Source: a bacterium
GTDB lineage: Bacteria > UBA8248 > JACPRG01 > G963555815
DNA: 64,000 nt
Assembly (NCBI GenBank): GCA_965261595.1
Contig: CBDHDG010000006.1
Span: 1,672,799 to 1,736,798 of the forward strand
Reading direction: 5' to 3'
Shown here: positions 6,075 through 32,836 of the stretch, piece by piece
Layout: each line of letters begins with the position of its first letter
Position numbering within the stretch: the stretch's first letter is position 1
The notes under the pieces: model-generated
Databases searched by the model: none
Told to the model about the DNA's origin: nothing
The model's input: only the letters and a program-made list of their open reading frames with translations
Made by a program: the position numbers and the translations under genes

Positions 6075-8588
6075 TTGAAGAATATGAGATTCAAACCCAT
6101 ATCGATCGCGGTGTCCATCGTGGTCGCCGTTATGGCGGTTCAAAGGGTTCCGGCCGCGGCGAAGATCGAAGATTACGCCTTCGGCCTTCGCCTCCTGGAA
6201 GACGGTCACTTGGACGCCGCCATCCTGGCCTTCGAGTCTTATCTGGAGAACAACCCGAAGGGCGCCCGGCGGGCGGAAGCCAGGTTTTTTTTGGCCGAGA
6301 CCCGGCATGAGAAAGGGGTCATCGCCGAGGCCCTGAGAGAATACCGGACCTTCCTGGCCGAGAATCCCGAGCACCCCTTCCGGTCCACGGCGCACTTCCG
6401 GATTGGCAAAATCGAGTTGGGCAACGGCCGTCTCAAGGCTGCGGCCGGCCAGTTCTCCAAAGTCCGCGACGGACCGCTGATCGACCAGGCGTTGTATCAC
6501 CTGGGACACATCCAATTTCGTCTTGAGGATTGGGCCGCCGCAATCCGCGCGTTCTCGGACCTGCTCGGCCGATTTCCCTCCAGCCCCTTCAGCGCCGGCG
6601 TTCGGTATGTTCTCGGGATCGCCCACTACAAAGGTGGGCAGGACACCCAGGCCCTGAAAAACCTTCAGGCCTACCTGAAGTCGCCGCGGCCCGGAAAAGT
6701 CGAGTCTTTGTGGGCGCATGCGGTCGCCGGGATGATTCGCAAGCGGCAAGGGAACTGTGATCCCGCGATCCGCCACTTCGAGGTGGTGCTCCAGGCGGAT
6801 CCTCGATTTCCCCCCAGGGGCAGCGCCGCCTGGGGGCTGGCCGAATGTCTTTATGAGAAAAAGGATTATCATTCCGCGGAAAAGAAATATGCGGTCTACC
6901 TGGAAACCTATGCCAAATCCCCCCAGATTACGCTGGCCCGGATTCGCGCCGGTCACAGTCACTTCATCGCCGGACGGTATCAGGATGCGCTCGGATATTT
7001 TCGGAAGCTCGCCAAGAAAAATGTCCCGCCCCAATATCGGCAATGGGTCCTGTACTGGACCGCCAGATCCCTGGACCTGTCGGGCGACCCGGACGCCGCT
7101 TTGCGGGGCTACGAAGAGCTCATCCGGTCCTTTCCGGACGGATCGGCGACCTATGACGCCGCGGCCAGGGCGGCGGCCATTCGGTTACGCCGGAAGGAGT
7201 ATGAACGGGCCGTCGAGATCCTCTCCGTGCTGAAGAGCGCCCCGGACGGCCTCCAGGCCGCTTGGGCCGTTCGAATGACGGGGGAGGCGCAGTTTGCGCT
7301 CGGCCGCTTTGGGGAGGCCTACGAGTCTTTTCGGGAGGTCCTCCCCAAGGTTCAGGATAAAGCCATCCGGCGGGAGATGATTCGGAAGCTTGGCCTGTCC
7401 GCGTTCCGGATCAAGAAAGACCGGGCGGCTCTTGAGCACCTCGGCGGCTGGTTGCGGGGGGAGGAGAAAGGCCGCCCGGATCAGAAGCGGGAGCCCTGGC
7501 CGACCCGCCGGTATGAGGTCCTCAAGGTCTTGGCCGCGGTCCAGACCCGGTTGGGTCTGTTGCGGGAAGTGGCCGATACGTGGACCCGGTTGGAGGCCGA
7601 GGCCGTTCGTGTGGACGAAGGCGGAACGGCCGACGGCCTGACAGAATTTTCCGCGAATCGCGGGTTTGTCCTGTTTCGGTTGAAGGAGTATGCGTCTGCC
7701 GAGCGGGAATTTCGGAATTGGCTGACCCGCTATCCGCGGGACAAGCGGCGTCCGCTAATCCTGCTTCATCTCGGCCTGGCCGAGATCCGGACCGAAAAAT
7801 TCGCCGATGCCGTTTCGCACCTGGATGCCTTCCTGAAAGAAAACCCGTCCCACCCCCGCGTCCGCGATGCCTTGTACGCTTCCGCCCTGGGCGCGATGCG
7901 CATGAAGGATTATGCCTCCTCGGCCCGGCGGCTGGCGAACTGGCTGGCGGGTGCGGGGGAGGGTGGGGACGCCGGGCGGCAGAAGGAGGCTTGGTTTCTG
8001 CTCGCCGCCGCCCGGTTCGAGTTGGCGGAGTGGAAATTGGCGGCGGCCGCCTATCACCGAATCCTGAAGGGCTATCCGAAGGAGAAGCGAAGGGAGGCGA
8101 TCCTCCACAAATTGGGAGTGGCCTACGACCGGATGGCCGAAGTGGACGGGTTGGACGCGGTGCTCGGTTGGGTGAGCGTGCATGCGCCGGAATTCAGGAA
8201 GGGGAAGCTTTTTCTTCGGCTGGGAAAGGACCGGCTCCGCCGGCGGCAATGGAAGCGGGCCGCTGCGTATCTCCGGGTGGCCGCACAGTCGGAAGACCCC
8301 ATTGTGAGAGCGGAAGGTCTTTTCCGCCTGGCGAGCGCGAATGTGCAAGGAGGGAACCAGCGGGAAGCGCTTCAGGCCATCGAGAAAATCCCGAGGGCGG
8401 TTGAGGAATCCGCGGATTGGAGGGGGGACGCCGAGTACCTTCGCGGGGTGGTCTATGAGGCCGAGAGACAGTGGGAGAAGGCGGTGAAGGCGTATCGCGT
8501 GGCCGCCCGTCAAACGTCCAGTCCATCCGTCGCCCGTGCGGCCCTGGACCGAATCGGCAGGATAGAGTCCGCCAAATGGAAAAATTGA
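6075..8588 (+). CDS. TPR-repeat protein with N-terminal signal peptide
   Basis: 837 aa with a signal-like N-terminus (MKNMRFKPISIAVSIVVAVMAVQRVPAAA) and repeated TPR-like A/Y/L helical motifs throughout. Confidence 0.75.
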   Translation: MKNMRFKPISIAVSIVVAVMAVQRVPAAAKIEDYAFGLRLLEDGHLDAAILAFESYLENNPKGARRAEARFFLAETRHEKGVIAEALREYRTFLAENPEHPFRSTAHFRIGKIELGNGRLKAAAGQFSKVRDGPLIDQALYHLGHIQFRLEDWAAAIRAFSDLLGRFPSSPFSAGVRYVLGIAHYKGGQDTQALKNLQAYLKSPRPGKVESLWAHAVAGMIRKRQGNCDPAIRHFEVVLQADPRFPPRGSAAWGLAECLYEKKDYHSAEKKYAVYLETYAKSPQITLARIRAGHSHFIAGRYQDALGYFRKLAKKNVPPQYRQWVLYWTARSLDLSGDPDAALRGYEELIRSFPDGSATYDAAARAAAIRLRRKEYERAVEILSVLKSAPDGLQAAWAVRMTGEAQFALGRFGEAYESFREVLPKVQDKAIRREMIRKLGLSAFRIKKDRAALEHLGGWLRGEEKGRPDQKREPWPTRRYEVLKVLAAVQTRLGLLREVADTWTRLEAEAVRVDEGGTADGLTEFSANRGFVLFRLKEYASAEREFRNWLTRYPRDKRRPLILLHLGLAEIRTEKFADAVSHLDAFLKENPSHPRVRDALYASALGAMRMKDYASSARRLANWLAGAGEGGDAGRQKEAWFLLAAARFELAEWKLAAAAYHRILKGYPKEKRREAILHKLGVAYDRMAEVDGLDAVLGWVSVHAPEFRKGKLFLRLGKDRLRRRQWKRAAAYLRVAAQSEDPIVRAEGLFRLASANVQGGNQREALQAIEKIPRAVEESADWRGDAEYLRGVVYEAERQWEKAVKAYRVAARQTSSPSVARAALDRIGRIESAKWKN

Positions 8589-9187: not shown

Positions 9188-11703
9188 TGGCCTACCGCCG
9201 GGGGGAGGACCGGGAGGCCCGGGCCTGGATGGAGCGGGTGCTCGAGCGCTTTCCGGGACATCCCCAGGCGGTAGTGGCCGATTTCATCGCCGGAGAGATC
9301 TCTTTGCGCCGGGATGACCTTGCCCGCGCCGCTTGGCATTTCGCCGGCGCGCGGCAAGCCGCCGCGGAGCGGGGACGGGAGCGACTCCTGAAGCTCGCCT
9401 TGTTTCGCGAGGGGATGACAGCGTTCCATCTTGAAAGGTATGAACGCGTAACCGAGTCCCTGGATGCTTATCTCAAAACCCCCGGCGCATTGGCCCATGC
9501 GCGTTCGGCCCGCTTCGCCCTCGGCTGGTCCTACCTTCAGGTCCGCCTTTATCTGAAGGCGCGGGACGCCTTTCTGAAATCCCTGCGGGCCGATTCGGAT
9601 GAGACAGGAGAGGTCTCGCTCGGCTGGCTGTTGAGCGCGCTCGCACTGGGTCGGGAGGACGAGGTCCAAGGCGCTTTGCGCCGCCTGAAGGGGATTCGTC
9701 CGGACGGGCGATCCGCTTTGTGGGGTGCGTTGGCCTGGGCGCGCCGGCTCCACCGCTCGGGCCGATTTCAAGCGTCGGTTGAGGTTCTCGAAGAGGCCCT
9801 GCGCGGCCTGAAGGGCGCCGAAGCCGCCGGGAAGGAAGACCTCATCCGCTGGGCCCGGCTTCTGTTGGCCTTTTCCCTCTACAACGCGGGTGGAAAAGAT
9901 CAATCGGCCTCGGAGATTTTCCGGGATTTGTCGGAGGCCCCCGCGGGCGTTGGAGATGTCCTTCGGACCCAAGCGGCGTACGGGCTTCTCCTCGCACGGT
10001 TGGGCGCCGGGGCCCTCAAGGGGGCGGTGAGCGCCGCGGATTCCTTCGAGAAACGGTTTCCAACCGACCCGCGGTTGGCGGAGGCCCGGTTCTGGAGAGG
10101 CGAAGCGCTCTTACGGCTCAAGCGGCCCGCCGATGCGCGGGGGGCGTTCGAGAAAATCCCCCCCCATCACCGTCTGGGTCCGGAAGCCGCGTTGGGACGG
10201 GCCTATGCCTTTTATGACGAAGGACGCTGGCCGGACGCCTTGGCCGCTTTCGGCGAGGCGGCGAAACGGCTTCGGGGGCGTCCCGCGCTTCTGGCCGAGG
10301 TCCGGGTTCGGCAGGCCGAGGCCCACTACAACATGCGCAATTACGGCCGCGCGGGGGAAATGTACCGGAAAACCCTGAAAGAATTTCCGGATGGCCGCAT
10401 GGCGAAGACCGCCGCTCTTCGACTTGGGGAGATGCAGTTCCGGCGGGCGAATTACCAAGAGGCGGAGAATACGTTTGCGGAGTATTTGCGTCGGTGGCCC
10501 AAAAGCCCCCGCGGCGATGAGGCCTATTTTTGGAGGGGGTTGACCCGGATCCGGCTGGGGTGGTTTCCCTTGGCTCGTGTATCGCTGTCCCGGCTCGTGC
10601 GGGATTATCCCAAGAGCCGTTACCGGACCATGGCCCTTTTGCAGATCGGGCACTCCTACTACAACCAAGGCGATTTCATGGAGTCCATGGCCGCGTACAA
10701 CCGTGTTCTCGCCCAAAATCCCTCCTCGGAGGAGGCGAGGGAAGCCAGATACGGAATCGTGTTGACCCAGTTGCGGTCGGGCGACACGGACAAGTTCATC
10801 CGCGACGCGCGGGCCTTCATCCGGAAGGAGCCGGACCACAAGCTGGTCACGACGATGGAATTCCAGGTGGCCGAGATCTATCTGGCGCAGAAGCGATACA
10901 AGGACGCCCTGGCCGCCTACGTGCGGGTCTTGCGCCGGGGGGGGCCGGATTCCGATGTGGTCCACTTTCGGATCGGCGAGATCAAGCGCCTGGAAGGCAA
11001 GCCGGCGGAGGCGGCGGATTATTTCCGCGATCTGCTGGATCGGTTCCCCGACAGCCGCGTCCGGGGAGACGCCCGGTACCGCCTGGCCGCGTCCCTGGCC
11101 GAGCTCGGCGATTGCGAGGGCGCCGTGCGGGAGTATGGTCTCTTCGTCCGGAACCACCCGAGGCATAGCCTGCTGACGCAGGCGCGCTATGAGGCGGCGA
11201 ACTGCGCCCTGCGCCTGAACGACCAGGACGCCGCGGAACGATATTTTTCACAAGTCGTGCAGAGCGGCGGGGCCGGCGCGCTGGTCGCCGGCAGCCACTA
11301 CGCCCTGGGCCGTATCGCGCGGAAGAACCGGCGTTTCGGGCAGGCCCTGTCTCACCTGGAAGCCGCGATGAAGGGCGACGTGGGCCGGGAGCTGCGGCCG
11401 CGCATCCAGTTCGAGCTGGGGAGTCTGCGGGAGGCCGGAAAGCAGTATCCGCGCGCCGTGGTAGAATACCTGAAGATCATTTACTTGTATCCTCGGGAGA
11501 AGGTTTTTGTCCACCGGGCGCTCTTGCGGGTGGCGCGGATTTATGAGTTGCAGGATAAGAAAGGGCAAGCCATCGACCTCTACCGGAAGGTTCTGAAGGG
11601 TTCGCCCGATCCGTCCGTTCGCCGGCGCGCGCGTGCGCGTCTGGAGTTGCTGAAGGGGGTGTCTGAAGAAATGCGGTCCCAACCCGCGGAGAAGGTCCGA
11701 TGA
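9187..11703 (+). CDS. TPR-repeat protein
   Basis: About 840 aa of repeated TPR-like motifs. Translationally coupled to the upstream ORF and to exbB (stop overlaps ATG at 11700). Confidence 0.75.
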   Translation: MAYRRGEDREARAWMERVLERFPGHPQAVVADFIAGEISLRRDDLARAAWHFAGARQAAAERGRERLLKLALFREGMTAFHLERYERVTESLDAYLKTPGALAHARSARFALGWSYLQVRLYLKARDAFLKSLRADSDETGEVSLGWLLSALALGREDEVQGALRRLKGIRPDGRSALWGALAWARRLHRSGRFQASVEVLEEALRGLKGAEAAGKEDLIRWARLLLAFSLYNAGGKDQSASEIFRDLSEAPAGVGDVLRTQAAYGLLLARLGAGALKGAVSAADSFEKRFPTDPRLAEARFWRGEALLRLKRPADARGAFEKIPPHHRLGPEAALGRAYAFYDEGRWPDALAAFGEAAKRLRGRPALLAEVRVRQAEAHYNMRNYGRAGEMYRKTLKEFPDGRMAKTAALRLGEMQFRRANYQEAENTFAEYLRRWPKSPRGDEAYFWRGLTRIRLGWFPLARVSLSRLVRDYPKSRYRTMALLQIGHSYYNQGDFMESMAAYNRVLAQNPSSEEAREARYGIVLTQLRSGDTDKFIRDARAFIRKEPDHKLVTTMEFQVAEIYLAQKRYKDALAAYVRVLRRGGPDSDVVHFRIGEIKRLEGKPAEAADYFRDLLDRFPDSRVRGDARYRLAASLAELGDCEGAVREYGLFVRNHPRHSLLTQARYEAANCALRLNDQDAAERYFSQVVQSGGAGALVAGSHYALGRIARKNRRFGQALSHLEAAMKGDVGRELRPRIQFELGSLREAGKQYPRAVVEYLKIIYLYPREKVFVHRALLRVARIYELQDKKGQAIDLYRKVLKGSPDPSVRRRARARLELLKGVSEEMRSQPAEKVR

Positions 11704-18889: not shown

Positions 18890-19060
18890 CTAGGGTATGG
18901 CTGATTCATCGTTCACTTCAGCGTCTTTCGACCTTTCGCCCACAATCTTGTCTACTTCCTTCATAACCCGTTTTCCGAATATCTTCTCCATAAAATCATG
19001 GCCCGAAAGTTCGAGGTCTTCCTTTTTCAGTTCGTCTTTCTCTTTGGGGGATTGACCCAT
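18890..19060 (-). CDS. small hypothetical protein inside the IS, divergent from the transposase
   Basis: 57-aa charged ORF (MGQSPKEKDELKKEDLEL...) abutting the transposase start. Weak support only. Confidence 0.2.
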   Translation of the reverse strand: MGQSPKEKDELKKEDLELSGHDFMEKIFGKRVMKEVDKIVGERSKDAEVNDESAIP

Positions 19061-19949
19061 GGACATGAACCTCGTTTCCTTGATGGACCGCTTCAACTGC
19101 GATAAAAAGTGCCGAAAGGCCCTGGAGCATATCCGGTGGCCCAATGGTGTCGCCTGCACCCGTTGCGGCGATATGGACGTTCTTCCTCTTCCCAAACACT
19201 GCCGATGGGAATGTAAGTCATGCGGCTACCAGTTCAGCGTCATGTCGGGGACCATCATGCACGATTCTCATCTTGCCCTTCGCAAGTGGTTCCTGGCGAT
19301 CTACCTGATGTGCGAGTCGAAGAAGGGGATTTCCGCCCTTCAGATGAAGAGAACGCTTGGGACAACCTACCGGACGGCCTGGCACCTGTGCCACCGAATC
19401 CGCGAGGCGATGGGCAATGATCCGTTTGAGGGGCCTACGCTTCTCGGAGTGGTAGAGGTCGATGAAACGCTTGTGGGAGGCAAGAAGAAGGGCAAGGGCC
19501 GTGCCTACAAGGGCAACAAGGTTTGGGTCGCAGGAGCCATCCAGCGAGGCGGCAAGGTCCGGGTCGAGCGTATCTCCGACGTGAAACGTCACACGCTCCA
19601 TGGATTCATTAGCCGCGCCGTTCGGGACGAAGCCGAGGCCATCTATACGGACGAATTGAAGTCCTACCTGGGAATTGCCGACAACAATACGCGCCATGAG
19701 ACGGTCAACCATTCAGCCGAACAATGGGTCATTGGCGAAGTTCACACCAACAGTATAGAAGGTGTTTGGAGCCTATTCAAGCGTTCCCTGATGGGTGCGT
19801 TCCACAAGATGAGCGCGAAGCACATGGACCGCTACCTCGAAGAGCTTGAATGGCGGTTCAACAACCGGAACAACCCGAATCTATTCCAAGATACCCTTGC
19901 CCGCATTATGGACACTAAGAATCTGACTTATCGGGAGTTGGTGGCTTAA
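19059..19949 (+). CDS. IS1595 family transposase (zinc-ribbon plus DDE domain)
   Basis: N-terminal CxxC...CxxC zinc ribbon (CTRCG...CKSCGY) and a DDE_Tnp_IS1595-like core (ISXO2-like), 296 aa. Confidence 0.9.
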   Translation: MDMNLVSLMDRFNCDKKCRKALEHIRWPNGVACTRCGDMDVLPLPKHCRWECKSCGYQFSVMSGTIMHDSHLALRKWFLAIYLMCESKKGISALQMKRTLGTTYRTAWHLCHRIREAMGNDPFEGPTLLGVVEVDETLVGGKKKGKGRAYKGNKVWVAGAIQRGGKVRVERISDVKRHTLHGFISRAVRDEAEAIYTDELKSYLGIADNNTRHETVNHSAEQWVIGEVHTNSIEGVWSLFKRSLMGAFHKMSAKHMDRYLEELEWRFNNRNNPNLFQDTLARIMDTKNLTYRELVA

Positions 19950-23463: not shown

Positions 23464-24143
23464 TTTCCATTCCCAGGATTCGGGCAAAGCCGAACCCGCC
23501 GATGCCCTCGTATTGCCGTTAGGCGCTTGCCCCACTTCTCAAGGGCCGCATTCCGCCGCGCCATTCAGATTATCACGGTTCAGGTTGCGCGGCGGGATAT
23601 AGAGGTTGTGAATCGATCACGCGGGAACACCCGGGTCCGTCGCTGTCTATGGCGGCCGTTGGCGGTGTCAAGCCGGATCATTCCGCCAGCATGGACTGGA
23701 TATTTCCGGCCGCTCGGCGGGATCGACCCTTCAAGAAATCCGGTGGTTCAATCATTGTTCGGACAATATGGATTTGTTCTAAGTAGAACCCCCGTGGCAC
23801 TATTTGTGCAAGCTTAAAAAGATGGGAACCATACATGCGCTCAATAGCGGTTCACGGTTTTGACCCTCCCGGATAAGTCAGAGGGGGGATGGGTCCGCGT
23901 GAAATCGTATTACCCCGCTACGCTTTGGGGGAGCCGCCCGCCTATCGCCCCGGGTGTTGTCGGAGGGGCGGAGATCCAGGGTCCCGAAGGTCGGGTTGAT
24001 CTTGGGGTTCCGGTGCGCCTCGGCGGCGCATTTCACGGTTTCCGTAAACAGAAACAAATCAAGGGGGGGACGCAAGAAAACGGGCGCCCCCGCCCTTGGG
24101 TTTCGTTGGACACTCGATCGAGTCATCAAGGCAAACCAATCGG

Positions 24144-26324
24144 ATGATCAAGCGACTCCTCATCTGGCTCACCTCCCTGCTTTATGAGCGAACCATCCTC
24201 GTTCTGAGCGTGATGTTCGTTGCCGGCGTGGCGGGCATGATTTGGGATGTTTCCCGTGTGCAGACAAATCTCATCGAAGCGACGGCATTGGAATACGCGA
24301 CCGAGCACACCCACGCTCTGGCGGAATTTCGCACGCTCTATACGTCGGAAGTGGTTGCCCGCGTGAGGCCCTATGGGACCGAGGTGACCCATGACTACAA
24401 ATCAAAGGAAGGAGCCATCCCCCTTCCCGCCACGTTGAGCATGGAGCTCGGCAAAAGAATCGGGAAGCATCGTTCCGGGCTTCAATCCCGGTTGTACAGC
24501 GCCTATCCGTTTCCCTGGCGAAAAGACAAGGGCGGCCTGCGGGATGAATTTGCCAAGGAAGCCTGGAACCATTTGCGCCGGAATCCCGATAAACCTTTTT
24601 ACCGATTCGAGACATTCCAGGGCCGCCGCTCATTGCGATACGCGACGGCGGATTTGATGCGGCCCGCTTGCGTCAACTGTCACAACACGCACCCCGACTC
24701 CCCCAAAAAGGATTGGAAAGCGGGAGACGTAAGAGGGGTTCTGGAAATTGTACGCCCCATGGAGGCCATCGTCGCGCAGACGCGAGAAGGTCTAAGAAAA
24801 ACCTTTGGCCTGATGGTGGTGATGGCCGTGATGGGGCTGTCATGTCTCACCCTCGTGATTGGCAGGCAAAGGCGAACCTCGGCCGACTTGGGGCAGCGGG
24901 CTGAGGAGGTGGAAGCGGCCAACCGAGAGCTGAAAACCGAGATCGCCGAGCGCAAGCGGACCGAGGAGGCTCTCAAACTCACGCAATTCTCCGTCGAGCG
25001 ATCGGTGGACGCGACCTTCTGGATCGCGCCGGACAGCCGGATCCTGAACGTGAACGATGCGACATGCCGTCACTTCGGGTATTCACGGGAAGAGCTTCTC
25101 TCGATGACCATCTCGGACATCAACCTGGCCTACCCGCGGGAGAAATGGACCGAGCATTGGGAAAAAGTGAAGCGAAATGGATCTCTGACTTTCGAATCCA
25201 TCTTAACGACCAAAGACGGCCGGGAGATGCCGGTCGAGATTACCGCCAACTACCTGGAATTCAACGGAAAGGAGTACATTTTCAGCTTTGCCCGCGACAT
25301 CACCGCGCGCAAGGAGGCGGAGGAAGCGTTGCGACTCACGCAATTCTCCGTTGACCGGGCGGGAGACGCCACCAACTGGATCGCGCGGGACGGCAAGATC
25401 CTCTATGTGAACGATGCGGAATGCGACTATCTCGGGTACTCGCGGGAAGAACTGCTCTCCATGACCATTTTCGAAATCGATTCGGAGCAATCGCCGGAGA
25501 AGTGGGCGGCGCATTGGAAAAAAGTGAAAGAAGCGGGTTCGCTTACATTTGAGTCAAGCCAAGTAACCAAAGACGGCGGGAAAATCCCGACCGAGGTGAC
25601 CTCCAGTCACCTGGAGTTCAACGGAAAGGAGTACCTCGTCGGCTTTGTTCGCGACATCACCGAGCGCAAGCGGGCAGAGGAGGCGCTGCGGCTCACGCAG
25701 TTCTGCGTTGAGCGGGCGGGGGACCCCGTTTTTTGGTTCGGCCCGGACGGCCGGTTTCTTTACGTGAATGATGCGGCGTGCCGGTATCTCGGGTACTCAC
25801 GGGAAGAGCTGCTCACGATGGCCGTCTCGGACATCAACCCGCAGCGTACGCCGGAGAAGTGGCCCGAGAGATGGGAAAAGAGGAAAGGGCGCGGACCGCA
25901 GACCTTCGAGACCCGCCACCTCGCCAAGGACGGCCGGACGGTTCCGGTCGAGGTGACCGCCAACTACCTGGAGCTTAACGGAAAGGAGTATATGTTCAGC
26001 TTCGCCCGCGACATCACTGCGCGCAAACAGGCCGAGGAGGCGCTGCGGCTCACGCAGTTCGCGGTGGATCAGGCGGGGGACGCCATTTTCTGGGTGACGC
26101 CGGATGGTGGATACCACTATGTGAATGACGCGGCGTGCTGGTATCTCGGGTACTCCCGGGAAGAGTTGCTCTCCATGTCGGTCTGGGACGTCCAGCCGGA
26201 TCTTTCGGCCGGGCAGTGGCCCGAGAGGTGGGAAGAGCTGAAACGGATCGGCGCTTTATCCGCCGAAACCCGCTACATGACCAAGAAAGGCGGAGTCGTT
26301 CCGGGCGAGGTATCCATCAACTAA
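24144..26324 (+). CDS. N-terminal part of multi-PAS hybrid sensor histidine kinase: 2-TM periplasmic CxxCH sensor domain plus PAS domains 1-4, ending at an in-frame TAA
   Basis: MIKRLLIWLTSLL TM1, extracytoplasmic domain with CVNCH (c-type heme motif, DUF3365-like), TM2, then four LRLTQF...NYLEFNGKEY PAS repeats. TAA at 26322-26324 replaces the conserved Tyr codon TAC. Confidence 0.8.
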   Translation: MIKRLLIWLTSLLYERTILVLSVMFVAGVAGMIWDVSRVQTNLIEATALEYATEHTHALAEFRTLYTSEVVARVRPYGTEVTHDYKSKEGAIPLPATLSMELGKRIGKHRSGLQSRLYSAYPFPWRKDKGGLRDEFAKEAWNHLRRNPDKPFYRFETFQGRRSLRYATADLMRPACVNCHNTHPDSPKKDWKAGDVRGVLEIVRPMEAIVAQTREGLRKTFGLMVVMAVMGLSCLTLVIGRQRRTSADLGQRAEEVEAANRELKTEIAERKRTEEALKLTQFSVERSVDATFWIAPDSRILNVNDATCRHFGYSREELLSMTISDINLAYPREKWTEHWEKVKRNGSLTFESILTTKDGREMPVEITANYLEFNGKEYIFSFARDITARKEAEEALRLTQFSVDRAGDATNWIARDGKILYVNDAECDYLGYSREELLSMTIFEIDSEQSPEKWAAHWKKVKEAGSLTFESSQVTKDGGKIPTEVTSSHLEFNGKEYLVGFVRDITERKRAEEALRLTQFCVERAGDPVFWFGPDGRFLYVNDAACRYLGYSREELLTMAVSDINPQRTPEKWPERWEKRKGRGPQTFETRHLAKDGRTVPVEVTANYLELNGKEYMFSFARDITARKQAEEALRLTQFAVDQAGDAIFWVTPDGGYHYVNDAACWYLGYSREELLSMSVWDVQPDLSAGQWPERWEELKRIGALSAETRYMTKKGGVVPGEVSIN

Positions 26325-26360
26325 CTGGAATTCAACGGCAAAGAATACTCCCTGGGCTTC

Positions 26361-29180
26361 GTGAGGGACATCTCCGAGCGCATGCGCGCGGAAGAGACGC
26401 TACGGCTCACGCAGTTCTCCGTTGACCGGGCCGGGGACGCCACATACTGGATCGGTGCGGACGGCCGAATCCTCTATGCCAACGAAGCGGCGCGCGCGGA
26501 TCTCGGGTACTCAATGGATGAAATGATCTCCATGACGATCATGGACATCAATCCGGACTACTCACCGGACACCTGGGCGGCGCATTGGAAGCGGCTAAAA
26601 GAAAAGGGTTTCTATACCTTTGAAGGGCGCAACGTGACCAAAGACGGCCGCAAATTTCCGGTCGAAGTGACTTCCAACTATTTGGAGTTCAACGGAAAAG
26701 AGTACATTTTCGGCTTCGTCCGCAACATCACCGACCGCAAGGAGGCGGAGGAGACGCTGCGGCTCACGCAATTCTCCGTTGACCGGGCCGGGGACGCCAC
26801 ATACTGGATCGCGGAGGACGGCCGCTTCCTCTATGTGAACGACGCGGCGTGCAAAATGCTCGGATACTCACGGGAAAAGCTGCTCACGATGGCGGTCTGG
26901 GACATCGACGCCAATCGCCGAATGGAACAGTGGATCGATAGACGGGAAGAGCGGAAACGCCATAAATTCTATACGTTAGAAACGGGCCACATGGCCAAGG
27001 ACGGCAGGGTCATCCCCGTTGAGATATCCGCCGACTGTCTCGAGTTCGGCGGCAAAGATTACATATTTGTCTCCGCCCGCGACATCACGGAGCGCAGACG
27101 GATGGCGGACGACTTGCGGAAGGCGAAGGAGGCCGCCGAGGTCGCCAGCCGCGCGAAGAGTGAATTTCTCGCCAACATGAGCCACGAGATCCGGACACCG
27201 ATGAACGGTGTGATCGGCATGTCGGGGCTTCTCCTCGACACCGGTCTCAGCGATAAACAGCGCGAGTACGCCGAGATGATTCGAGACTCGGGTGAGAACC
27301 TGCTTGAGATTGTGAATGACATTCTCGATTTATCGAAGATTGAGGCGGAAAAGCTGACCATCGAGCCGGTCCCGTTCGACCTGCTGTCCGTTGTGGAAGA
27401 GACGACCGAGTTCTTGGCGCCGAAGGCCGATGAAAAGGGCCTGTGTCTCATTGCCCGCTACGCCCCGGATCTCCCCCGTCACTTCATCGGTGACCCCGGA
27501 CGAATTCGACAGATTCTCATTAATTTCATGGGCAACACCATCAAGTTCACGAACGAGGGGCACGTTCTGCTCGGCATCGAGGCGGACGCTGGGCGCGAGG
27601 GAAAATCAGGTCTTCGGATCTCCGTGGCGGATACCGGCATCGGCATCCGCGAAGACGCGATCGAGCGGATCTTCGAAAAATTCACACAGGCCGACGCTCC
27701 AGCCTCCCACGCGCATGGCGGAACGGGCCTCGGGCTTTCGATCTGCAAACAGCTCATCGAGTTGATGGGAGGGACCATCGGGGTGAACAGCAGGCCCGGC
27801 GCAGGATCGACCTTTTGGGTCACCCTCCATCTTCCCCTCGCCTCCGCCGCCTCGCCTCCGCCCCCGCCGGAGCTGGCGGGTGCTCGCATCCTGATCGCGG
27901 CCGGAAATGAGCTCAAGAGGCAAATCCTGTACGAGCAAGTGAGGCATTGGGGAATGCGCGCGGACCGCGTCACTTCCATCGAGGAGACGCTGACCGCGGT
28001 TCATGACGCCCAAGAGGGCGTCGACCCATATCAGGCGGCCATTTTCACCGGCCAAAAAGACGGCGTGGACGCCGAGGCATTGGCCCGTGTCGTCCAATCC
28101 GACCCCAATCTGCGTAAGGTCCCCGCGGTCATCATCGCCCCCTTGGGGCAGCGGGTGGATGCGGATCGAATGGCGAAAGCCGGAATCGCCGCATGCCTGA
28201 GCGAGCCTGTGCGGCAATCCGATCTGATGAACGCCCTGGCGGCGTTGCGCCGCTCGGCAGAGACGGGGCCCCTTCCGGAAAGGGTGACTCGGTTTGCCCC
28301 GGCCGATTCCCACTCTGAAAGGCCTGCCCGGGACCGACAGGACGGTCGGGTTCTCTCTCGCGTTTTGGTGGCTGAAGACAATGCCGTGAACCAAAAGGTG
28401 GCGAAGGGGATGCTGGAGAATCTGGGCTTTCGTGTGGACGTGGTGTCCAATGGCAAGGAGGCCCTCGAGATGTCCGCACTGCTCCCCTACGACGTAATTT
28501 TCATGGATTGCCGTATGCCTGAGATGGACGGATACGAGGCGACGGCATTGATCCGCCGGAGGGAGCGGGAGGGTGGTTCTCGCGTCCCGATCATCGCCCT
28601 GACGGCCCACGCCATGCAGGGTGAGCGGGAGAGGTGTCTGGCGGCGGGCATGGACGACTATGTCACCAAGCCGGTGAAGGTTGATGAGCTGAAGACTGTC
28701 CTGGCGCGCTGGATCGGAGACGTGGGAACGACGGACGCCCCGGCTCCCGCCAGGGTGGAGGGGGCCCGCGAAGTGACCCTCGACCTCGAGGCGCTCCGAG
28801 AATTGGTCTCTGTCGCGGCGGCATCGGGTTCCGGCTTCGTGGAGGAAGCGGTGGCCACTTATTTATCGCAGACGCCCGTTCAAATTTCGGCCGTCCGAGC
28901 GGCTATAGCGCACAAGAACGCGCAAGACCTCAGCCGGGAGGCCCACAGCCTCAAGAGCCGCAGCGCAATCTTGGGCGCGCGAAACATGAGGGCATTGAGC
29001 GCTGAGCTGGAAGGGCGCGCGGAGGCGGACTCGCTGGAGGGGGCGGGAATGCTCCTCCGGAGATTGGAGGAGGAGTTTGACCGCGTGAAATCAGCGCTCG
29101 AGTCCGGGCTGTGGAAGGGCGAAGGGGTAAGCGTTTTGACAGCGGCCGGCCCGCTTGTTGTTTCTGAGAAGCCCGAATGA
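26361..29180 (+). CDS. C-terminal part of the same hybrid histidine kinase: PAS 5-6, HisKA, HATPase_c, receiver, HPt
   Basis: Same frame as 24144-26324. Motifs SHEIRTPMNGVIG (H-box), GTGLGLSICK (G2), receiver DVIFMDCRMPEMDGYEA, HPt SREAHSLKSRSAILGA. First in-frame ATG after the stop is 26361. Confidence 0.8.
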   Translation: MRDISERMRAEETLRLTQFSVDRAGDATYWIGADGRILYANEAARADLGYSMDEMISMTIMDINPDYSPDTWAAHWKRLKEKGFYTFEGRNVTKDGRKFPVEVTSNYLEFNGKEYIFGFVRNITDRKEAEETLRLTQFSVDRAGDATYWIAEDGRFLYVNDAACKMLGYSREKLLTMAVWDIDANRRMEQWIDRREERKRHKFYTLETGHMAKDGRVIPVEISADCLEFGGKDYIFVSARDITERRRMADDLRKAKEAAEVASRAKSEFLANMSHEIRTPMNGVIGMSGLLLDTGLSDKQREYAEMIRDSGENLLEIVNDILDLSKIEAEKLTIEPVPFDLLSVVEETTEFLAPKADEKGLCLIARYAPDLPRHFIGDPGRIRQILINFMGNTIKFTNEGHVLLGIEADAGREGKSGLRISVADTGIGIREDAIERIFEKFTQADAPASHAHGGTGLGLSICKQLIELMGGTIGVNSRPGAGSTFWVTLHLPLASAASPPPPPELAGARILIAAGNELKRQILYEQVRHWGMRADRVTSIEETLTAVHDAQEGVDPYQAAIFTGQKDGVDAEALARVVQSDPNLRKVPAVIIAPLGQRVDADRMAKAGIAACLSEPVRQSDLMNALAALRRSAETGPLPERVTRFAPADSHSERPARDRQDGRVLSRVLVAEDNAVNQKVAKGMLENLGFRVDVVSNGKEALEMSALLPYDVIFMDCRMPEMDGYEATALIRRREREGGSRVPIIALTAHAMQGERERCLAAGMDDYVTKPVKVDELKTVLARWIGDVGTTDAPAPARVEGAREVTLDLEALRELVSVAAASGSGFVEEAVATYLSQTPVQISAVRAAIAHKNAQDLSREAHSLKSRSAILGARNMRALSAELEGRAEADSLEGAGMLLRRLEEEFDRVKSALESGLWKGEGVSVLTAAGPLVVSEKPE

Positions 29181-29230
29181 AACTCTGGAATTCCACCAAG
29201 TGTTTTTACCATGAGAAAGGACCACCCGAG

Positions 29231-30316
29231 ATGAGTGGAAAGATCCGCGTTTTGATCGTTGAGGATTCAGCTTTGGAGCGTTTCCTCCTCTGTGAGATTC
29301 TCTCCCAAGAGCCCGACATCGAGGTGGTCGATGTCGCGCCGGACGCCGATCGCGCCCGAAATAAAATGCGAATTCATAAGCCCGACGTTCTGACGCTGGA
29401 CGTGAAGATGCCGGGCGAGGACGGCATTGCCTTCCTCACCGGGCTTATGTCCACGGACCCTCTTCCGGTCATCATGGTCAGCGCGTTCACCCTGGCGGGA
29501 GCGAAGACCACGCTGTCCGCCCTCGAGAAAGGCGCGGTGGATTTCGTCGCGAAACCCGATGGCAGCAAAGATGAAGATCTTGAAGTGTTCCGGCGGGAGC
29601 TCATCCGGAAAGTGCGCGCCGCCGCCACGGCCCGTATGGGGCGGCATCCCCGGCCGGTCCCGACCCACGCGCCGGCGGAGCTGCCGGAAACACCGGGATT
29701 CATCGTTGCGATTGGAACCTCGATGGGAGGTCCGGAAGCGTTGAGGAGTCTTCTTCCGAGACTTCCGGCCAATTTTCCGGCGATTCTGCTCGTCCAGCAT
29801 ATGCCGGAGTACTTCACCCAGGCCATGGCCGAGAGCCTGGATAAGATCTGCGCCATCCACGTGAAGGAGGCGGAACAGGGCAAACCCGTCCTACCGGGTC
29901 AGGCGCTCATTGCTCCGGGAAATTGCCACATGGAGTTGCGGCGCCTGGGAACCCGCTATTATGTGGAGATTCACAAAAACCCCCGGGTGCGCGGGTTCCG
30001 GCCTTCTGTGGATGTGTTGTTCGAGTCTGTGGCCCAATACGCGGATTTGGACACCATAGGGGTCATCCTGACGGGGATGGGCTCGGATGGGGCGAAGGGC
30101 ATCTCCCGGACGAAGGCCGCCGGCGCGTACACCATTGCCCAGGACGAGGCAAGCTCTGTCATCTTCGGCATGCCCAAACAGGCCATCGCGACGGGGGCCG
30201 TCGATATCGTGCTTCCTCTCGAGGGAATCCCCGGCCATCTCATTAAAGCGATGCAAAGGGCAGGGGCGCCCTTGAAGAAGCCGGCCGGATCGCCGTTGGT
30301 CGCAGCGAGAACCTAG
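29231..30316 (+). CDS. cheB: protein-glutamate methylesterase CheB (REC plus methylesterase)
   Basis: REC domain (IRVLIVEDSALER...LTLDVKMPGEDG) and CheB catalytic domain (IVAIGTSMGGPEAL, HMPE..., GMGSDG). ATG at 29231. Confidence 0.85.
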   Translation: MSGKIRVLIVEDSALERFLLCEILSQEPDIEVVDVAPDADRARNKMRIHKPDVLTLDVKMPGEDGIAFLTGLMSTDPLPVIMVSAFTLAGAKTTLSALEKGAVDFVAKPDGSKDEDLEVFRRELIRKVRAAATARMGRHPRPVPTHAPAELPETPGFIVAIGTSMGGPEALRSLLPRLPANFPAILLVQHMPEYFTQAMAESLDKICAIHVKEAEQGKPVLPGQALIAPGNCHMELRRLGTRYYVEIHKNPRVRGFRPSVDVLFESVAQYADLDTIGVILTGMGSDGAKGISRTKAAGAYTIAQDEASSVIFGMPKQAIATGAVDIVLPLEGIPGHLIKAMQRAGAPLKKPAGSPLVAART

Positions 30317-30702
30317 TGCTTATTTGCGAAAATTAGCATCTTCTCAAAGGCGGCAAATTGCCAATAAAATTCAGTCAAAATTGCCCAAAAATTAATACGC
30401 GAACTTTTGCAACCAAGCACTAGTGTCGCGTCCCGGAAATAAATTCACGATTTCCGAACCTCCTCAAAGTAGGGCGCCACCGGCGGTTTGCCCGCCAGCG
30501 CCTCATTTTTCGGGAAATCCAAAGGGCATCCTGTCACCTGATATTTATTGAAAGGATTTCTGAGACGCGACACTAGGCCAAGTCATTCCCCCTTCTTTCG
30601 GACAGGTTGTTGTCCCACACCGAGTTGACAAGATGAAGAAGGCTTGGCTTTTCTCTTTGTGAGAAACGCAGCCTCACCCGCCGTGTCGCTTGGACCCGGC
30701 AC

Positions 30703-30981
30703 GGGCTCCGCGCGCGCGCGGGGGGGGGGCCACCGACGCCAGCACAGAGAGCACTGATCGAGGGGCTCCGCGCGCGCGCGGGGGGGGGGCCTCTAAGCCC
30801 CCCAGCCCGTCTATCATGCGGCCGGCTCCGCGCGCGCGGGGGGGGGACGATCGCGGCCTTTCTTTTCTCAAAGGTTCCAATGGCTCCCCCCGCGCGCGCG
30901 GGGCGCGCGCGCGGGGGGAGCCCTGGCCAAATCTCTATCTCAGGTGACATAATGGGCTCCGCGCGCGCGGGGGGGGGCCTC
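30703..30981. CRISPR. CRISPR-like orphan array: about 5 units of a 26-29 bp GC-only repeat (GGGCTCCGCGCGCGCGCGGGGGGGGGGCC) with about 32-bp unique spacers
   Basis: Repeat copies start at about 30703, 30763, 30823 and 30955, plus a palindromic double unit at 30882-30922. Period about 60 bp. Spacers 31-35 bp with no mutual similarity. AT-rich leader-like region upstream (30317-30480). No cas genes in the window. Confidence 0.4.
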
Positions 30982-31162
30982 ACGGAACTGACCGGAAGCC
31001 GCGCGGAGCGCAGCGCGAGGCCTCGTGAAGGGGCATGTGTAGAGTCGATTAAATTGTTGTATGCTTGGATGATGTGACGCCACGCTGGAAACTGCTTCTC
31101 CTCATGGGGGGAAGCCGTTTCCCGATGTCGGGAAACCCAGGGGCCCTGCTGAAAGGGGGTAG

Positions 31163-32836
31163 GTGGTGTTGTGGATCATTTTGGCGATCGTGTTTGTCGT
31201 GGCCGCGCTTGCGATTCCTCGAAGGTTTCCCGATCCATCGGCAAAGAACGCCATCAGGGTGGTGTGCGGAATTCTCGCCCTGTTCCTCGTATTCTCCACC
31301 TCATACGTGCATGTCGGGGCCGATGAGGTCGGCCACCTCAAGAAAATTTATTTCGGGCGGTCACTGCCGCCGGGAAAGATCATCGCCGTAAACGGAGAGA
31401 AAGGACCCCAGGCGGAGATCTTGCCGCCGGGTTTCCATTTCCGGCCCTTGCTCAACATCATTTACGATGTCGAGAAAAGGCCGATCATCGAAATTTCTGC
31501 AGGGAAATACGGATTTCTTACGGCAAGGGACGGCCGTCCGCTGAGAAAGGAACAATTTTTCGCGGAAGGATGGCCGGAGGTGGAATTCGTCCAGATGGCT
31601 CAGGATGCGGCGCAATTCATCAAGAAAGGGGGGCAGAAGGGACCTCAGCTCACGGTGCTGAAACCGGGACGATACCGGGTGAATCAGTACCTGTTCGAAG
31701 TGAAGCTGGACGTTGCGACGAGTATCGCGCCCGGCACGGTCGGCGTGGTCAAGTCCAACGTCCAGGAGCGGAAAGAGTGCAAACCACTGAAAACCGGGGG
31801 TGAAGGTGCGCTTTCGGCGCCTCTGGTGCCGAAATTCTGCATCGGCGTGTGGAACGAGCCCCTCTTTCCCGGAAAGTATTATCTAAACCGCAGCGCCTAT
31901 GAAGTCACAATCATCAGCACCCGGGTGCGTGCATGGACGTATAAGGGGGGATACACGAAGCGCAGAATCGACCTCACCCTGGATCAAGAGGGCAAGATTT
32001 CCCAGAGCTTAAGGAGCGTGGGGATTCCCGTCCCGCAGAACGCGGCCGATTCCGCAATCCTGATCCGGGTCGAAGGCTGGGAGATTCCCCTGGAGCTTCG
32101 GGTCCTGGTGCAGATTGCGCCCGAAAACGCCCCGTTCGTCGTCGCCTCGGTCGGCGGCCTGGATAAGGTCGAGAATGCTGTCCTGACCCCGGCGCTGCGA
32201 AGTGTCGTCAGAAATGTCCTGGGCGCGAAGGGGCGGAAGGTCCTGGAGCTTCAGGACCAGCGGGCCGATCTCGAGGCCCTGGTCGAGTCGAAGATCCGGC
32301 CCGAAGGCGGGAAGGCCGGCATCTCCATCAACGAAGTCCGCTTTGCCGACCCCGTCATTCCGCCGGTGCTCCTGGTCACTTGGCGCCGTGAGCAGCTCGC
32401 CGAGCGACTCAGGCGAACCTACCAAAGAGAGCAGGCCGCGCAAGAGGAACGCATCAAGACCGAAAACACAAGGGCGCGGGCCGATAGACAGTCGCAGATC
32501 GTCGGGGCCGAGATTGCGGTGAAGGTGGCCGAACAGCGAAGGCAGGCGGCGAAACTGGAAGGCGAAGGCGAGAAGCTTCGCCTCCTGGAGATCGCCGCCG
32601 GCCAGCGGGCGCAGGTCGATGTGCTGGGAAAGGACCGCGTGTTGCAGTTGGCCCTGCTCGAAAAAATGCTCGCCGCCGCCGTAAAGAATCCGGCGCTGGT
32701 TAAGGTTCCCAACGTCCTGGTGCAGGGTGGGGGAGGAGGCCTCGCGGGCGCCGCTGCCATCCTTGGTCAGAGTAATCTGGTGCAGGGATTGGTCCGCCGC
32801 GCTCCGGTCGAAGGCTCCCCCACGAGGAAGAAGTAA
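31163..32836 (+). CDS. SPFH/band-7 domain protein (flotillin / YqiK-like)
   Basis: N-terminal TM (WIILAIVFVVAALAI), SPFH domain, long Ala/Glu/Arg/Gln-rich coiled-coil C-terminus. 557 aa. Confidence 0.7.
   Translation: MVLWIILAIVFVVAALAIPRRFPDPSAKNAIRVVCGILALFLVFSTSYVHVGADEVGHLKKIYFGRSLPPGKIIAVNGEKGPQAEILPPGFHFRPLLNIIYDVEKRPIIEISAGKYGFLTARDGRPLRKEQFFAEGWPEVEFVQMAQDAAQFIKKGGQKGPQLTVLKPGRYRVNQYLFEVKLDVATSIAPGTVGVVKSNVQERKECKPLKTGGEGALSAPLVPKFCIGVWNEPLFPGKYYLNRSAYEVTIISTRVRAWTYKGGYTKRRIDLTLDQEGKISQSLRSVGIPVPQNAADSAILIRVEGWEIPLELRVLVQIAPENAPFVVASVGGLDKVENAVLTPALRSVVRNVLGAKGRKVLELQDQRADLEALVESKIRPEGGKAGISINEVRFADPVIPPVLLVTWRREQLAERLRRTYQREQAAQEERIKTENTRARADRQSQIVGAEIAVKVAEQRRQAAKLEGEGEKLRLLEIAAGQRAQVDVLGKDRVLQLALLEKMLAAAVKNPALVKVPNVLVQGGGGGLAGAAAILGQSNLVQGLVRRAPVEGSPTRKK

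Follow-up and report, generated by a model that had tools for sequence, protein, structure and literature searches.

Type I-E CRISPR arrays, such as CRISPR-I of E. coli, alternate a 29-nt repeat (GTGTTCCCCGCGCCAGCGGGGATAAACCG) with spacers of 32-33 nt, and CRISPR leaders are usually AT-rich. To our knowledge, the Cas1-Cas2 integrase is the only known machinery that duplicates a repeat with each insertion of a ~32-nt spacer. Orphan arrays and strain-level turnover of spacers are already well known, and the passages of 10.1101/148544 and PMC7054753 that cite Nivala et al. 2018 report that off-target integration by Cas1-Cas2 can spawn "neo-CRISPR" arrays in E. coli. Here we describe a locus in a 64,000-nt stretch of bacterial DNA (assembly GCA_965261595.1, contig CBDHDG010000006.1, positions 1,672,799 to 1,736,798; hereafter the window) that behaves as a small orphan CRISPR array would and most probably is one. 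It is unusual for its repeat of 100% G/C with slippage-prone tracts, for sister alleles that hold a solitary repeat, and for spacers that are patchy and locally derived.

Direct reading and a repeat search revealed five repeat copies and four spacers with a period of ca. 60 nt at window positions 30703-30979 (Table 1). This bears out the earlier note, which had described about five copies of a 26-29-bp unit at this period, except that its array end at 30981 moves to 30979 with refined unit boundaries. The repeat consensus, GGGCTCC(GC)nG9-10CC, is 26-29 nt long and consists entirely of G and C. All copies fall into a single 29-nt family with starts at 30703, 30763, 30823, 30881/30894, and 30954, i.e., spacings of 60, 60, 58, and 73 nt. 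When the 22-nt repeat core was searched in the 64 kb with at most three mismatches, all six matches lay at the array, compared to 0.01 expected from shuffled sequences. The individual copies measure 29, 29, 26, 41, and 26 nt, with R1 and R2 being identical and R3 and R5 3 nt shorter through changes in the (CG)n and G tracts (relative to R1, R3 lacks one CG unit and one G, has a different first base, and ends in AC instead of CC).

Like CRISPR arrays in general, the locus thus holds at least three regularly spaced direct repeats of 23-47 nt, namely five, and its spacers are uniform in length (31, 31, 33, and 31 nt) and show no significant pairwise similarity, with the caveat that a segment of a related locus (L019, see below) and the neighboring upstream DNA have similarity to S3 as well as S4. 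We regard this as a genuine repeat-spacer architecture because Tandem Repeats Finder did not report a 60-nt tandem array and because the spacers could not be aligned to one another, and we therefore rejected a diverged tandem duplication as its source. A coding origin was rejected as well: the open reading frames (ORFs) that run over the array at 30573-30983 (- strand) and 30690-30947 (+ strand) are by-products of GC content, the former has no Pfam match, and the region is reduced to one repeat in sister strains. The repeats are given here in the + orientation, in which they align with repeats of the type I-E style, and this may also be the direction in which the array is read.

The most telling evidence comes from near-clonal strains. 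Using the protein cluster of the SPFH/Band-7 protein encoded directly downstream of the array (19 members at ≥90% identity), we collected the corresponding loci from many assemblies. Their flanks are almost the same (99.2-99.98% identity): in the 6.5 kb that follow downstream, 1-54 positions are substituted and 0-2 columns are gapped, and the adjacent DUF309 protein is identical across all compared strains. Despite these near-identical flanks, the interval between cheB and the SPFH gene exists in at least six structural alleles. One of them carries a single repeat within the exact flanks of the window (L004/L027, L020/L031, and L029). L028 has two repeats that enclose a different spacer of 32-34 nt (CAGGGCGTCGCCTTCGAGAACGCGCTCCCCAGAC), and its upstream junction lacks 16 nt. 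The window itself, with its five repeats and four spacers, represents a third allele. In the fourth (L019/L030), a repeat, a spacer identical to S1, and a variant repeat are followed by a 79-nt segment, a second copy of the upstream region of ca. 215 bp, and a terminal repeat. Whole repeat-spacer units therefore differ between close strains (L004, L020, L029, L028, and L019 compared to the window), as they do among CRISPR arrays, and S1-S4 together with the L028 spacer amount to five different spacers, all of them 31-34 nt long and flanked by the repeat on either side. In other words, units of one repeat and one 31-34-nt spacer come and go while the flanks barely change. The repeat itself is real because no fewer than seven long-read contigs, which belong to six ENA assembly records, show it at this site (ERZ25068879, ERZ25071015, ERZ21829562, ERZ25074053, ERZ28763718, and ERZ28669063).

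The remaining alleles involve insertion sequences (ISs), which the repeat locus attracts. In L021/L025, a partial duplicate of the junction upstream of the repeat and GGGCTCCGC are followed by a 41-nt scar that an IS3-family element left from its left end and then by the normal junction and repeat. L026 harbors a full IS3-family element with the terminal inverted repeat (TIR) TGGACACTCG at ca. 20 nt from the repeat core, and its upstream synteny is lost. In L024, which is more distant, the entire region has given way to an IS256-like element. An old IS end of the DDE_Tnp_1_4 type lies 30 nt upstream of the repeat in all these strains (window 30571-30672).

The repeat also has relatives elsewhere. 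When metagenomes were scanned for pairs of GGCTCCGCGCGCGCG at a spacing of 35-60 nt, 10 loci were retrieved, at least six of which (L011, L013/L018, and L014-L017) are regular arrays with unique spacers and a period of 61-62 nt. Their repeats include GTCGGCTCCGCGCGCGCGAGGGGTTCACC, CGGCGGCTCCGCGCGCGCGGGGAAGAGAG, and the nearly all-GC ATCGGCTCCGCGCGCGCGAGGGCGGGCGG; in length and period they resemble type I-E repeats such as that of E. coli. The 5' portion of the window repeat, GGCTCCGCGCGCGCG(G)GGG, forms a core of 15-19 nt that is common to these arrays, so that judged by sequence the window repeat appears to share its 5' two-thirds with ordinary CRISPR repeats. No cas genes were found in the ORFs neighboring these look-alike arrays, the contigs of which are short. 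One of them, a cas-less mini-array of four CGGCGGCTCCGCGCGCGCGGGGAAGAGAG repeats with a period of 61 nt (L013 8440-8652 and L018 2427-2639), sits beside a tandem repeat with a 12-nt period, and the L013 contig is plasmid-like, encoding RepA_C and ParA. A scan of species-representative genomes with the 22-nt core gave only three single chance matches in coding sequences of unrelated high-GC metagenome-assembled genomes (MAGs), viral contigs matched neither the two-repeat pattern nor a single repeat, and the repeat had no second site in either the 64-kb window or the 34 related loci (ca. 300 kb).

Taken as a whole, the locus resembles type I-E arrays in its 29-nt repeat with a G/C-rich, self-complementary center, its 31-33-nt spacers, and the variability of these spacers among strains. 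Orphan and "neo-CRISPR" loci come to mind because the array is small and has no cas genes nearby while close relatives carry one repeat-like sequence, and the cas-less four-repeat array on the plasmid-like L013 contig is a similar case. The earlier note had left the choice between a degenerate orphan array and an undescribed repeat-spacer element; the presence or absence of units in near-clonal strains, the core shared with other arrays, and the cas-less window now support the CRISPR option, though this is still unproven. We consider it somewhat more probable than not that the feature is an orphan, type I-E-like CRISPR array whose units are gained and lost through Cas1-Cas2 acting in trans, with the affinity to type I-E suggested by resemblance of sequence, in that the 5' half of the repeat looks like that of type I-E-style repeats from high-GC bacteria.

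If so, each insertion of a ~32-nt spacer would duplicate the 26-29-nt repeat and thereby yield repeat-spacer-repeat. Five independent spacers of 31-34 nt and the clean repeat duplication seen in R1 and R2 indeed point to an integrase with a ruler. The Cas1-Cas2 in question would be supplied, now or until recently, by a cas locus in another part of the genome. Since several near-clonal strains hold one repeat, the array may have grown from a solitary repeat-like sequence by "neo-CRISPR" birth or may have collapsed repeatedly to one repeat through inter-repeat recombination. The lengths of the (CG)n and G tracts would then drift through slippage, unit 4 would have been perfected as a palindrome, probably by intrastrand template switching, and the GC palindrome may also draw ISs, including those of the IS3 family. 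The 386 bp upstream of the array are richer in AT than the window (48.7% versus 63.5% GC), which is compatible with a leader, yet they are composed of IS remnants and remnants of miniature inverted-repeat transposable elements (MITEs).

Unit 4 deserves separate mention. In agreement with the earlier note, which had taken it for a palindromic fusion of two inverted repeats, its 19-nt arms are 100% complementary, and its predicted fold of -47.9 kcal/mol (z = -7.5) was not matched in stability by any of 200 shuffled sequences. A quasipalindrome template-switch mutation that "corrects" both arms of the imperfect hairpin GGCTCC...GGGGCC would yield such a unit, and we suspect that it arose in this way. 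The description of the repeats as hairpin-forming thus holds for this palindromic copy but does not extend to the ordinary repeat, the folding of which (z of about -0.5) is an effect of composition. Nearly every strain has its own tract lengths, ranging from (CG)4 to (CG)8 and from G8 to G12 among the near-clonal strains (Table 1), and sequencing errors in G-runs are a possible source of these differences. Short-read assemblies of the species break exactly at the GC repeat (L022 1-110, L023 1-10, and the contig end of L034 in reverse complement), and L022 opens with a fold-back that runs through the (CG)n core. Tracts of this kind are reminiscent of simple-sequence contingency loci, i.e., poly-G or dinucleotide phase variation upstream of genes, given their variable (CG)4-8 and G8-12 lengths at 186 nt before the SPFH start codon. 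Contingency tracts lack unique spacers, unlike the array, and an effect on expression in the window is a candidate only.

Several observations weigh against an orphan type I-E-like array. BLAST searches of the array against 50,697 phage records and 72,556 plasmids gave nothing significant (best E = 0.8-3), IMG/VR contained no exact 24-25-mer of S1-S4 or of the L028 spacer, and no protospacers were found elsewhere in the window or in the related loci. The check on protospacers that the earlier note had proposed was therefore negative for the phage, plasmid, and IMG/VR collections, though this is a weak test since most environmental spacers have no known match. No cas domain of the Pfam or NCBIfam families was detected in the scanned ORFs of the 64-kb window, a few of which were left without annotation; this agrees with the earlier note, which had seen no cas gene within 30 kb on either side. 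Rfam returned neither CRISPR-DR nor any other credible family even at E = 10, and the only matches at this permissive threshold were weak microRNA-like ones due to pairing of inverted repeat copies. Furthermore, the ordinary repeat folds no better than composition-matched shuffles (z = -0.46), and in its minimum-energy fold GGCUCC pairs with GGGGCC across the entire repeat rather than leaving an 8-nt 3' handle free beside an internal stem as in type I-E, although in silico folding is a weak test for a 29-mer. The same procedure recovered the expected internal stem for the E. coli repeat (z = -3.2). Where type I-E repeats have an 8-nt handle that contains A/T, the window repeat is 100% G/C and ends in G9-10CC. 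Its copies vary in length, which is atypical for an active array, and one of them is palindromized, and the clean units add up to 29 + 31 = 60 nt compared to the 61 nt typical of type I-E, with the length of the G-run being uncertain; miscounting of G-runs could be behind this difference.

The origin of some spacers also weighs on this side and brings in an account that does not involve Cas proteins. The claim of the earlier note that all spacers are unique stands for S1 and S2 but not for S3 and S4, each of which carries an exact 10-mer from the 386-bp region just upstream and shows patchy similarity to it. The reverse complement of S4 forms an ordered, gapped copy of upstream positions 30532-30580 (26/27 aligned bases with four gaps), a score that was reached by 0.5% of GC-matched random 31-mers, and the tail of S3 is a patchy ordered subsequence of 30323-30365, a weaker signal (p of ca. 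0.03-0.045). Both spacers also resemble the 79-nt segment of L019 (p of ca. 0.002-0.004; ca. 0.002 for S3). Such patchy copying riddled with gaps is unlike the exact capture of a spacer, the duplication of parts of the upstream region in L019 and L021 is unlike the action of Cas1-Cas2, and some of the alleles are IS-driven rearrangements and not spacer gains.

The patchy copies in S3 and S4 would fit a Cas-independent rearrangement hot spot at which an extremely stable GC hairpin, the Z-DNA-prone (CG)n tract, and the G-run stall replication or break, and at which microhomology-mediated template switching copies nearby patches in either orientation and with low fidelity before re-priming in the repeat, resulting in repeat-patch-repeat. 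In this respect S3 and S4, as direct and inverted patchy copies of nearby DNA, resemble products of microhomology-mediated break-induced replication. The second upstream copy in L019 (2573-2776 compared to 2150-2372) would fit as well, since it differs from the first one by eight small deletions and no substitution; it begins at the equivalent of window position 30452, where L004 has a 13-nt insertion. The perfected palindrome of unit 4, tract lengths that vary in almost every strain, and the six or more structural alleles between flanks of near identity are likewise accommodated. We nevertheless view this hot spot as rather unlikely because template switching has no length ruler and leaves unexplained why five spacers all measure 31-34 nt and why R1 and R2 are cleanly duplicated. 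Moreover, no local template was found for S1, S2, or the L028 spacer in the window, the related loci, or the upstream comparison, the S3 signal is marginal once multiple testing is considered, and the deletion-only copy in L019 may stem from a local fault in the consensus or assembly of a Flye-style contig and not from error-prone repair synthesis. Similarly, it seems improbable to us that the units are made without Cas proteins by a self-renewing fragile site of all-G/C hairpins that acquires error-ridden patches templated by nearby or remote DNA and regenerates the hairpin on both sides. Under the CRISPR reading, S3 and S4 would instead come from diverged paralogues of the adjoining IS/MITE-derived DNA, which would fit the report that protospacer hot spots include transposons and the CRISPR arrays themselves (PMC5737086).

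The affinity of ISs for the locus could alternatively mean that the repeat is a palindrome targeted by ISs or akin to repetitive extragenic palindromic (REP) sequences and bacterial interspersed mosaic elements (BIMEs), with spacers being footprints of mobile elements that inserted one after another and were lost imprecisely. REP palindromes are the specific insertion targets of the IS3-family members IS1397 and ISKpn1, and the window repeat is likewise an intergenic GC-rich palindrome with IS3-family insertions at or beside it: the full element in L026 lies ca. 20 nt from the core, the 41-nt scar in L021 abuts GGGCTCCGC, and to these add the IS256-like replacement in L024 and the old DDE_Tnp_1_4 end 30 nt upstream. 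However, REP and BIME elements are dispersed and have conserved short linkers, whereas this repeat occupies a single site in the window and the ca. 300 kb of related loci, produced only the three chance matches in coding sequences of unrelated MAGs in the genome scan, and encloses unique spacers. Uniform footprints of 31-33 nt would not be expected from the loss of ISs, and the IS alleles are separate from the clean repeat-spacer alleles, so that we find this explanation highly improbable. An artefact of assembling or sequencing low-complexity DNA of extreme GC content appears scarcely plausible, too, even though short-read contigs L022, L023, and L034 terminate at the repeat (L022 with its fold-back), tract lengths vary across assemblies, and the L019 allele partly resembles an unpolished consensus. 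What speaks against it, besides the recurrence of the repeat at this site in long-read contigs from separate records, is that repeat-S1-repeat recurs in a second assembly with no link to that of the window, that the window flanks show no more than two gap columns per 6.5 kb compared to other contigs, and that the spacers are complex and not low-complexity sequence.

Table 1. Coordinates of the array units and of associated features (window positions unless a locus is named).
Feature	Position	Strand	Description
R1	30703-30731	+	29 nt, GGGCTCCGCGCGCGCGCGGGGGGGGGGCC; identical to R2
S1	30732-30762		31 nt, ACCGACGCCAGCACAGAGAGCACTGATCGAG; 31/31 identical in independent assembly L019/L030
R2	30763-30791	+	29 nt, same sequence as R1
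S2	30792-30822		31 nt, TCTAAGCCCCCCAGCCCGTCTATCATGCGGC; unique
R3	30823-30848	+	26 nt, CGGCTCCGCGCGCGCGGGGGGGGGAC
S3	30849-30881		33 nt; carries the exact 10-mer TTCTCAAAGG from upstream DNA
R4	30882-30922		41-nt perfect palindrome GGCTCCCCCCGCGCGCGCG-GGG-CGCGCGCGCGGGGGGAGCC, 19-nt arms and 3-nt loop
S4	30923-30953		31 nt
R5	30954-30979	+	26 nt, GGGCTCCGCGCGCGCGGGGGGGGGCC; counterpart of the lone repeat in L004, L020, and L029
cheB	29177-30316	+	CheB-type methylesterase with receiver domain, upstream flank
Upstream intergenic region	30317-30702		386 bp, 48.7% GC compared to 63.5% in the window; candidate leader, apparent source of S3/S4 patches
MITE-like segment	30420-30576		inverted repeat CTAGTGTCGCG...CGCGACACTAG, 28-nt arms, 82% complementary
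IS-end remnant	30571-30672	-	transposase-proximal end of a DDE_Tnp_1_4 IS; TIR-like GTGAGAAACGCAGCC; transposase gene gone
Junction	30673-30702	+	30 nt, CACCCGCCGTGTCGCTTGGACCCGGCAC region, from IS-end remnant to R1
SPFH gene	31166-32836	+	556-aa SPFH/Band-7 protein, identical to P0123, downstream flank
Tract-length variation sites	30708-30729; L004 ~9787-9814; L020 ~2779-2812; L021 ~2781-2806; L028 (reverse complement) ~7190-7290
IS sites at the repeat locus	L026 7210-8600; L021 2683-2723; L024 1574-2758		full IS3-family element; 41-nt scar; IS256-like element, respectively
Bracketing IS copies in the related species	L005 7895-9298 and 12394-13797; L006 and L007 7891-9294; L008 7477-8880

The array sits in the intergenic 846 bp that separate cheB from the SPFH gene in what is otherwise ordinary chromosome, with annotated genes for, e.g., a xanthine-dehydrogenase-like protein, PAS histidine kinases, UvrA, RecG, RelA/SpoT, GuaA, DnaE, DapL, and PanC. 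An IS1595-family transposase gene (DDE_Tnp_IS1595 with a zinc ribbon) is found at 19059-19949 on the + strand, where local GC is 57-58%. The boundaries of the DDE_Tnp_1_4 IS were set from five full copies in related genomes, and the remnant upstream of the array aligns locally to the IS end in L005 with a score of 40 that was reached by 0 of 500 shuffles. Toward cheB, the intergenic region contains two nested or adjacent inverted repeats (30420-30447/30549-30576 and 30306-30342/30394-30430). The junction at 30673-30702, part of which is deleted in L028 and part of which is duplicated in L021, would be leader-proximal if the array is read on the + strand.

Other functions of the region received little support. 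Integrons are defined by intI and by ORF-bearing cassettes between imperfect palindromes of 57-141 nt (attC), but no integrase was found among the scanned window ORFs, and the units of 31-33 nt contain no ORF. A role as terminator of cheB was rejected as no terminator-like site was found, and a scan for tRNA and tmRNA genes was negative. Promoter-like matches in the region were limited to 30341-30370 and to S4, where a sigma-70-like match with extended -10 (TGGCCA-18-CATAAT; window 30924-30953, + strand) points to the SPFH gene. The CATAAT that directly precedes the terminal repeat is found in the L019 allele, too.

The neighboring genes differ among the strains as well. CheB is intact with 379 aa in the window and L019 and split elsewhere (276+79, 294+89, or 301+82 aa). 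The sensor kinase further upstream (window 24096-29180) is encoded as 742 + 939 aa in the window, as a fused protein of 1678 aa in L020, L021, L028, and L029, and by two genes that divide it at another point (918 + 752 aa) in L004. Either frameshifts specific to lineages or differences in sequencing may underlie these splits of cheB and the kinase gene. Only one relative of the SPFH protein is named; it is 85% identical and annotated as an Acidobacteriota MAG, which the organism of the window probably is as well. In a related species with an SPFH protein that is 75% identical, the gene is present in multiple copies, with identical protein encoded on three contigs of one sample, and the homologue (ca. 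10001-11668) is bracketed by identical DDE_Tnp_1_4 ISs with ends of about CCTGGATATCTCAC and GGTGAGAAATGCGGGCTA in the manner of a composite-transposon passenger.

If the CRISPR reading is true, the locus would be a natural snapshot of small orphan arrays appearing, growing, and decaying in near-clonal environmental strains that hold zero, one, or four spacers at a site where mostly a single repeat is found, while the birth and growth of arrays have so far mainly been demonstrated in engineered E. coli. It would also mean that a CRISPR-type repeat can be 100% G/C, and since all-G/C repeats break short-read assemblies, such arrays are probably under-counted and likely missed in Illumina MAGs. 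If the locus is instead a Cas-independent rearrangement hot spot, scars of hairpin-driven rearrangement can fool CRISPR finders, which would matter for surveys of orphan arrays. Units generated without Cas would constitute a CRISPR-independent route to CRISPR-looking arrays and possibly raw material for orphan arrays and new repeats. Under either reading, the practical importance is modest and an immune role of the locus is putative.

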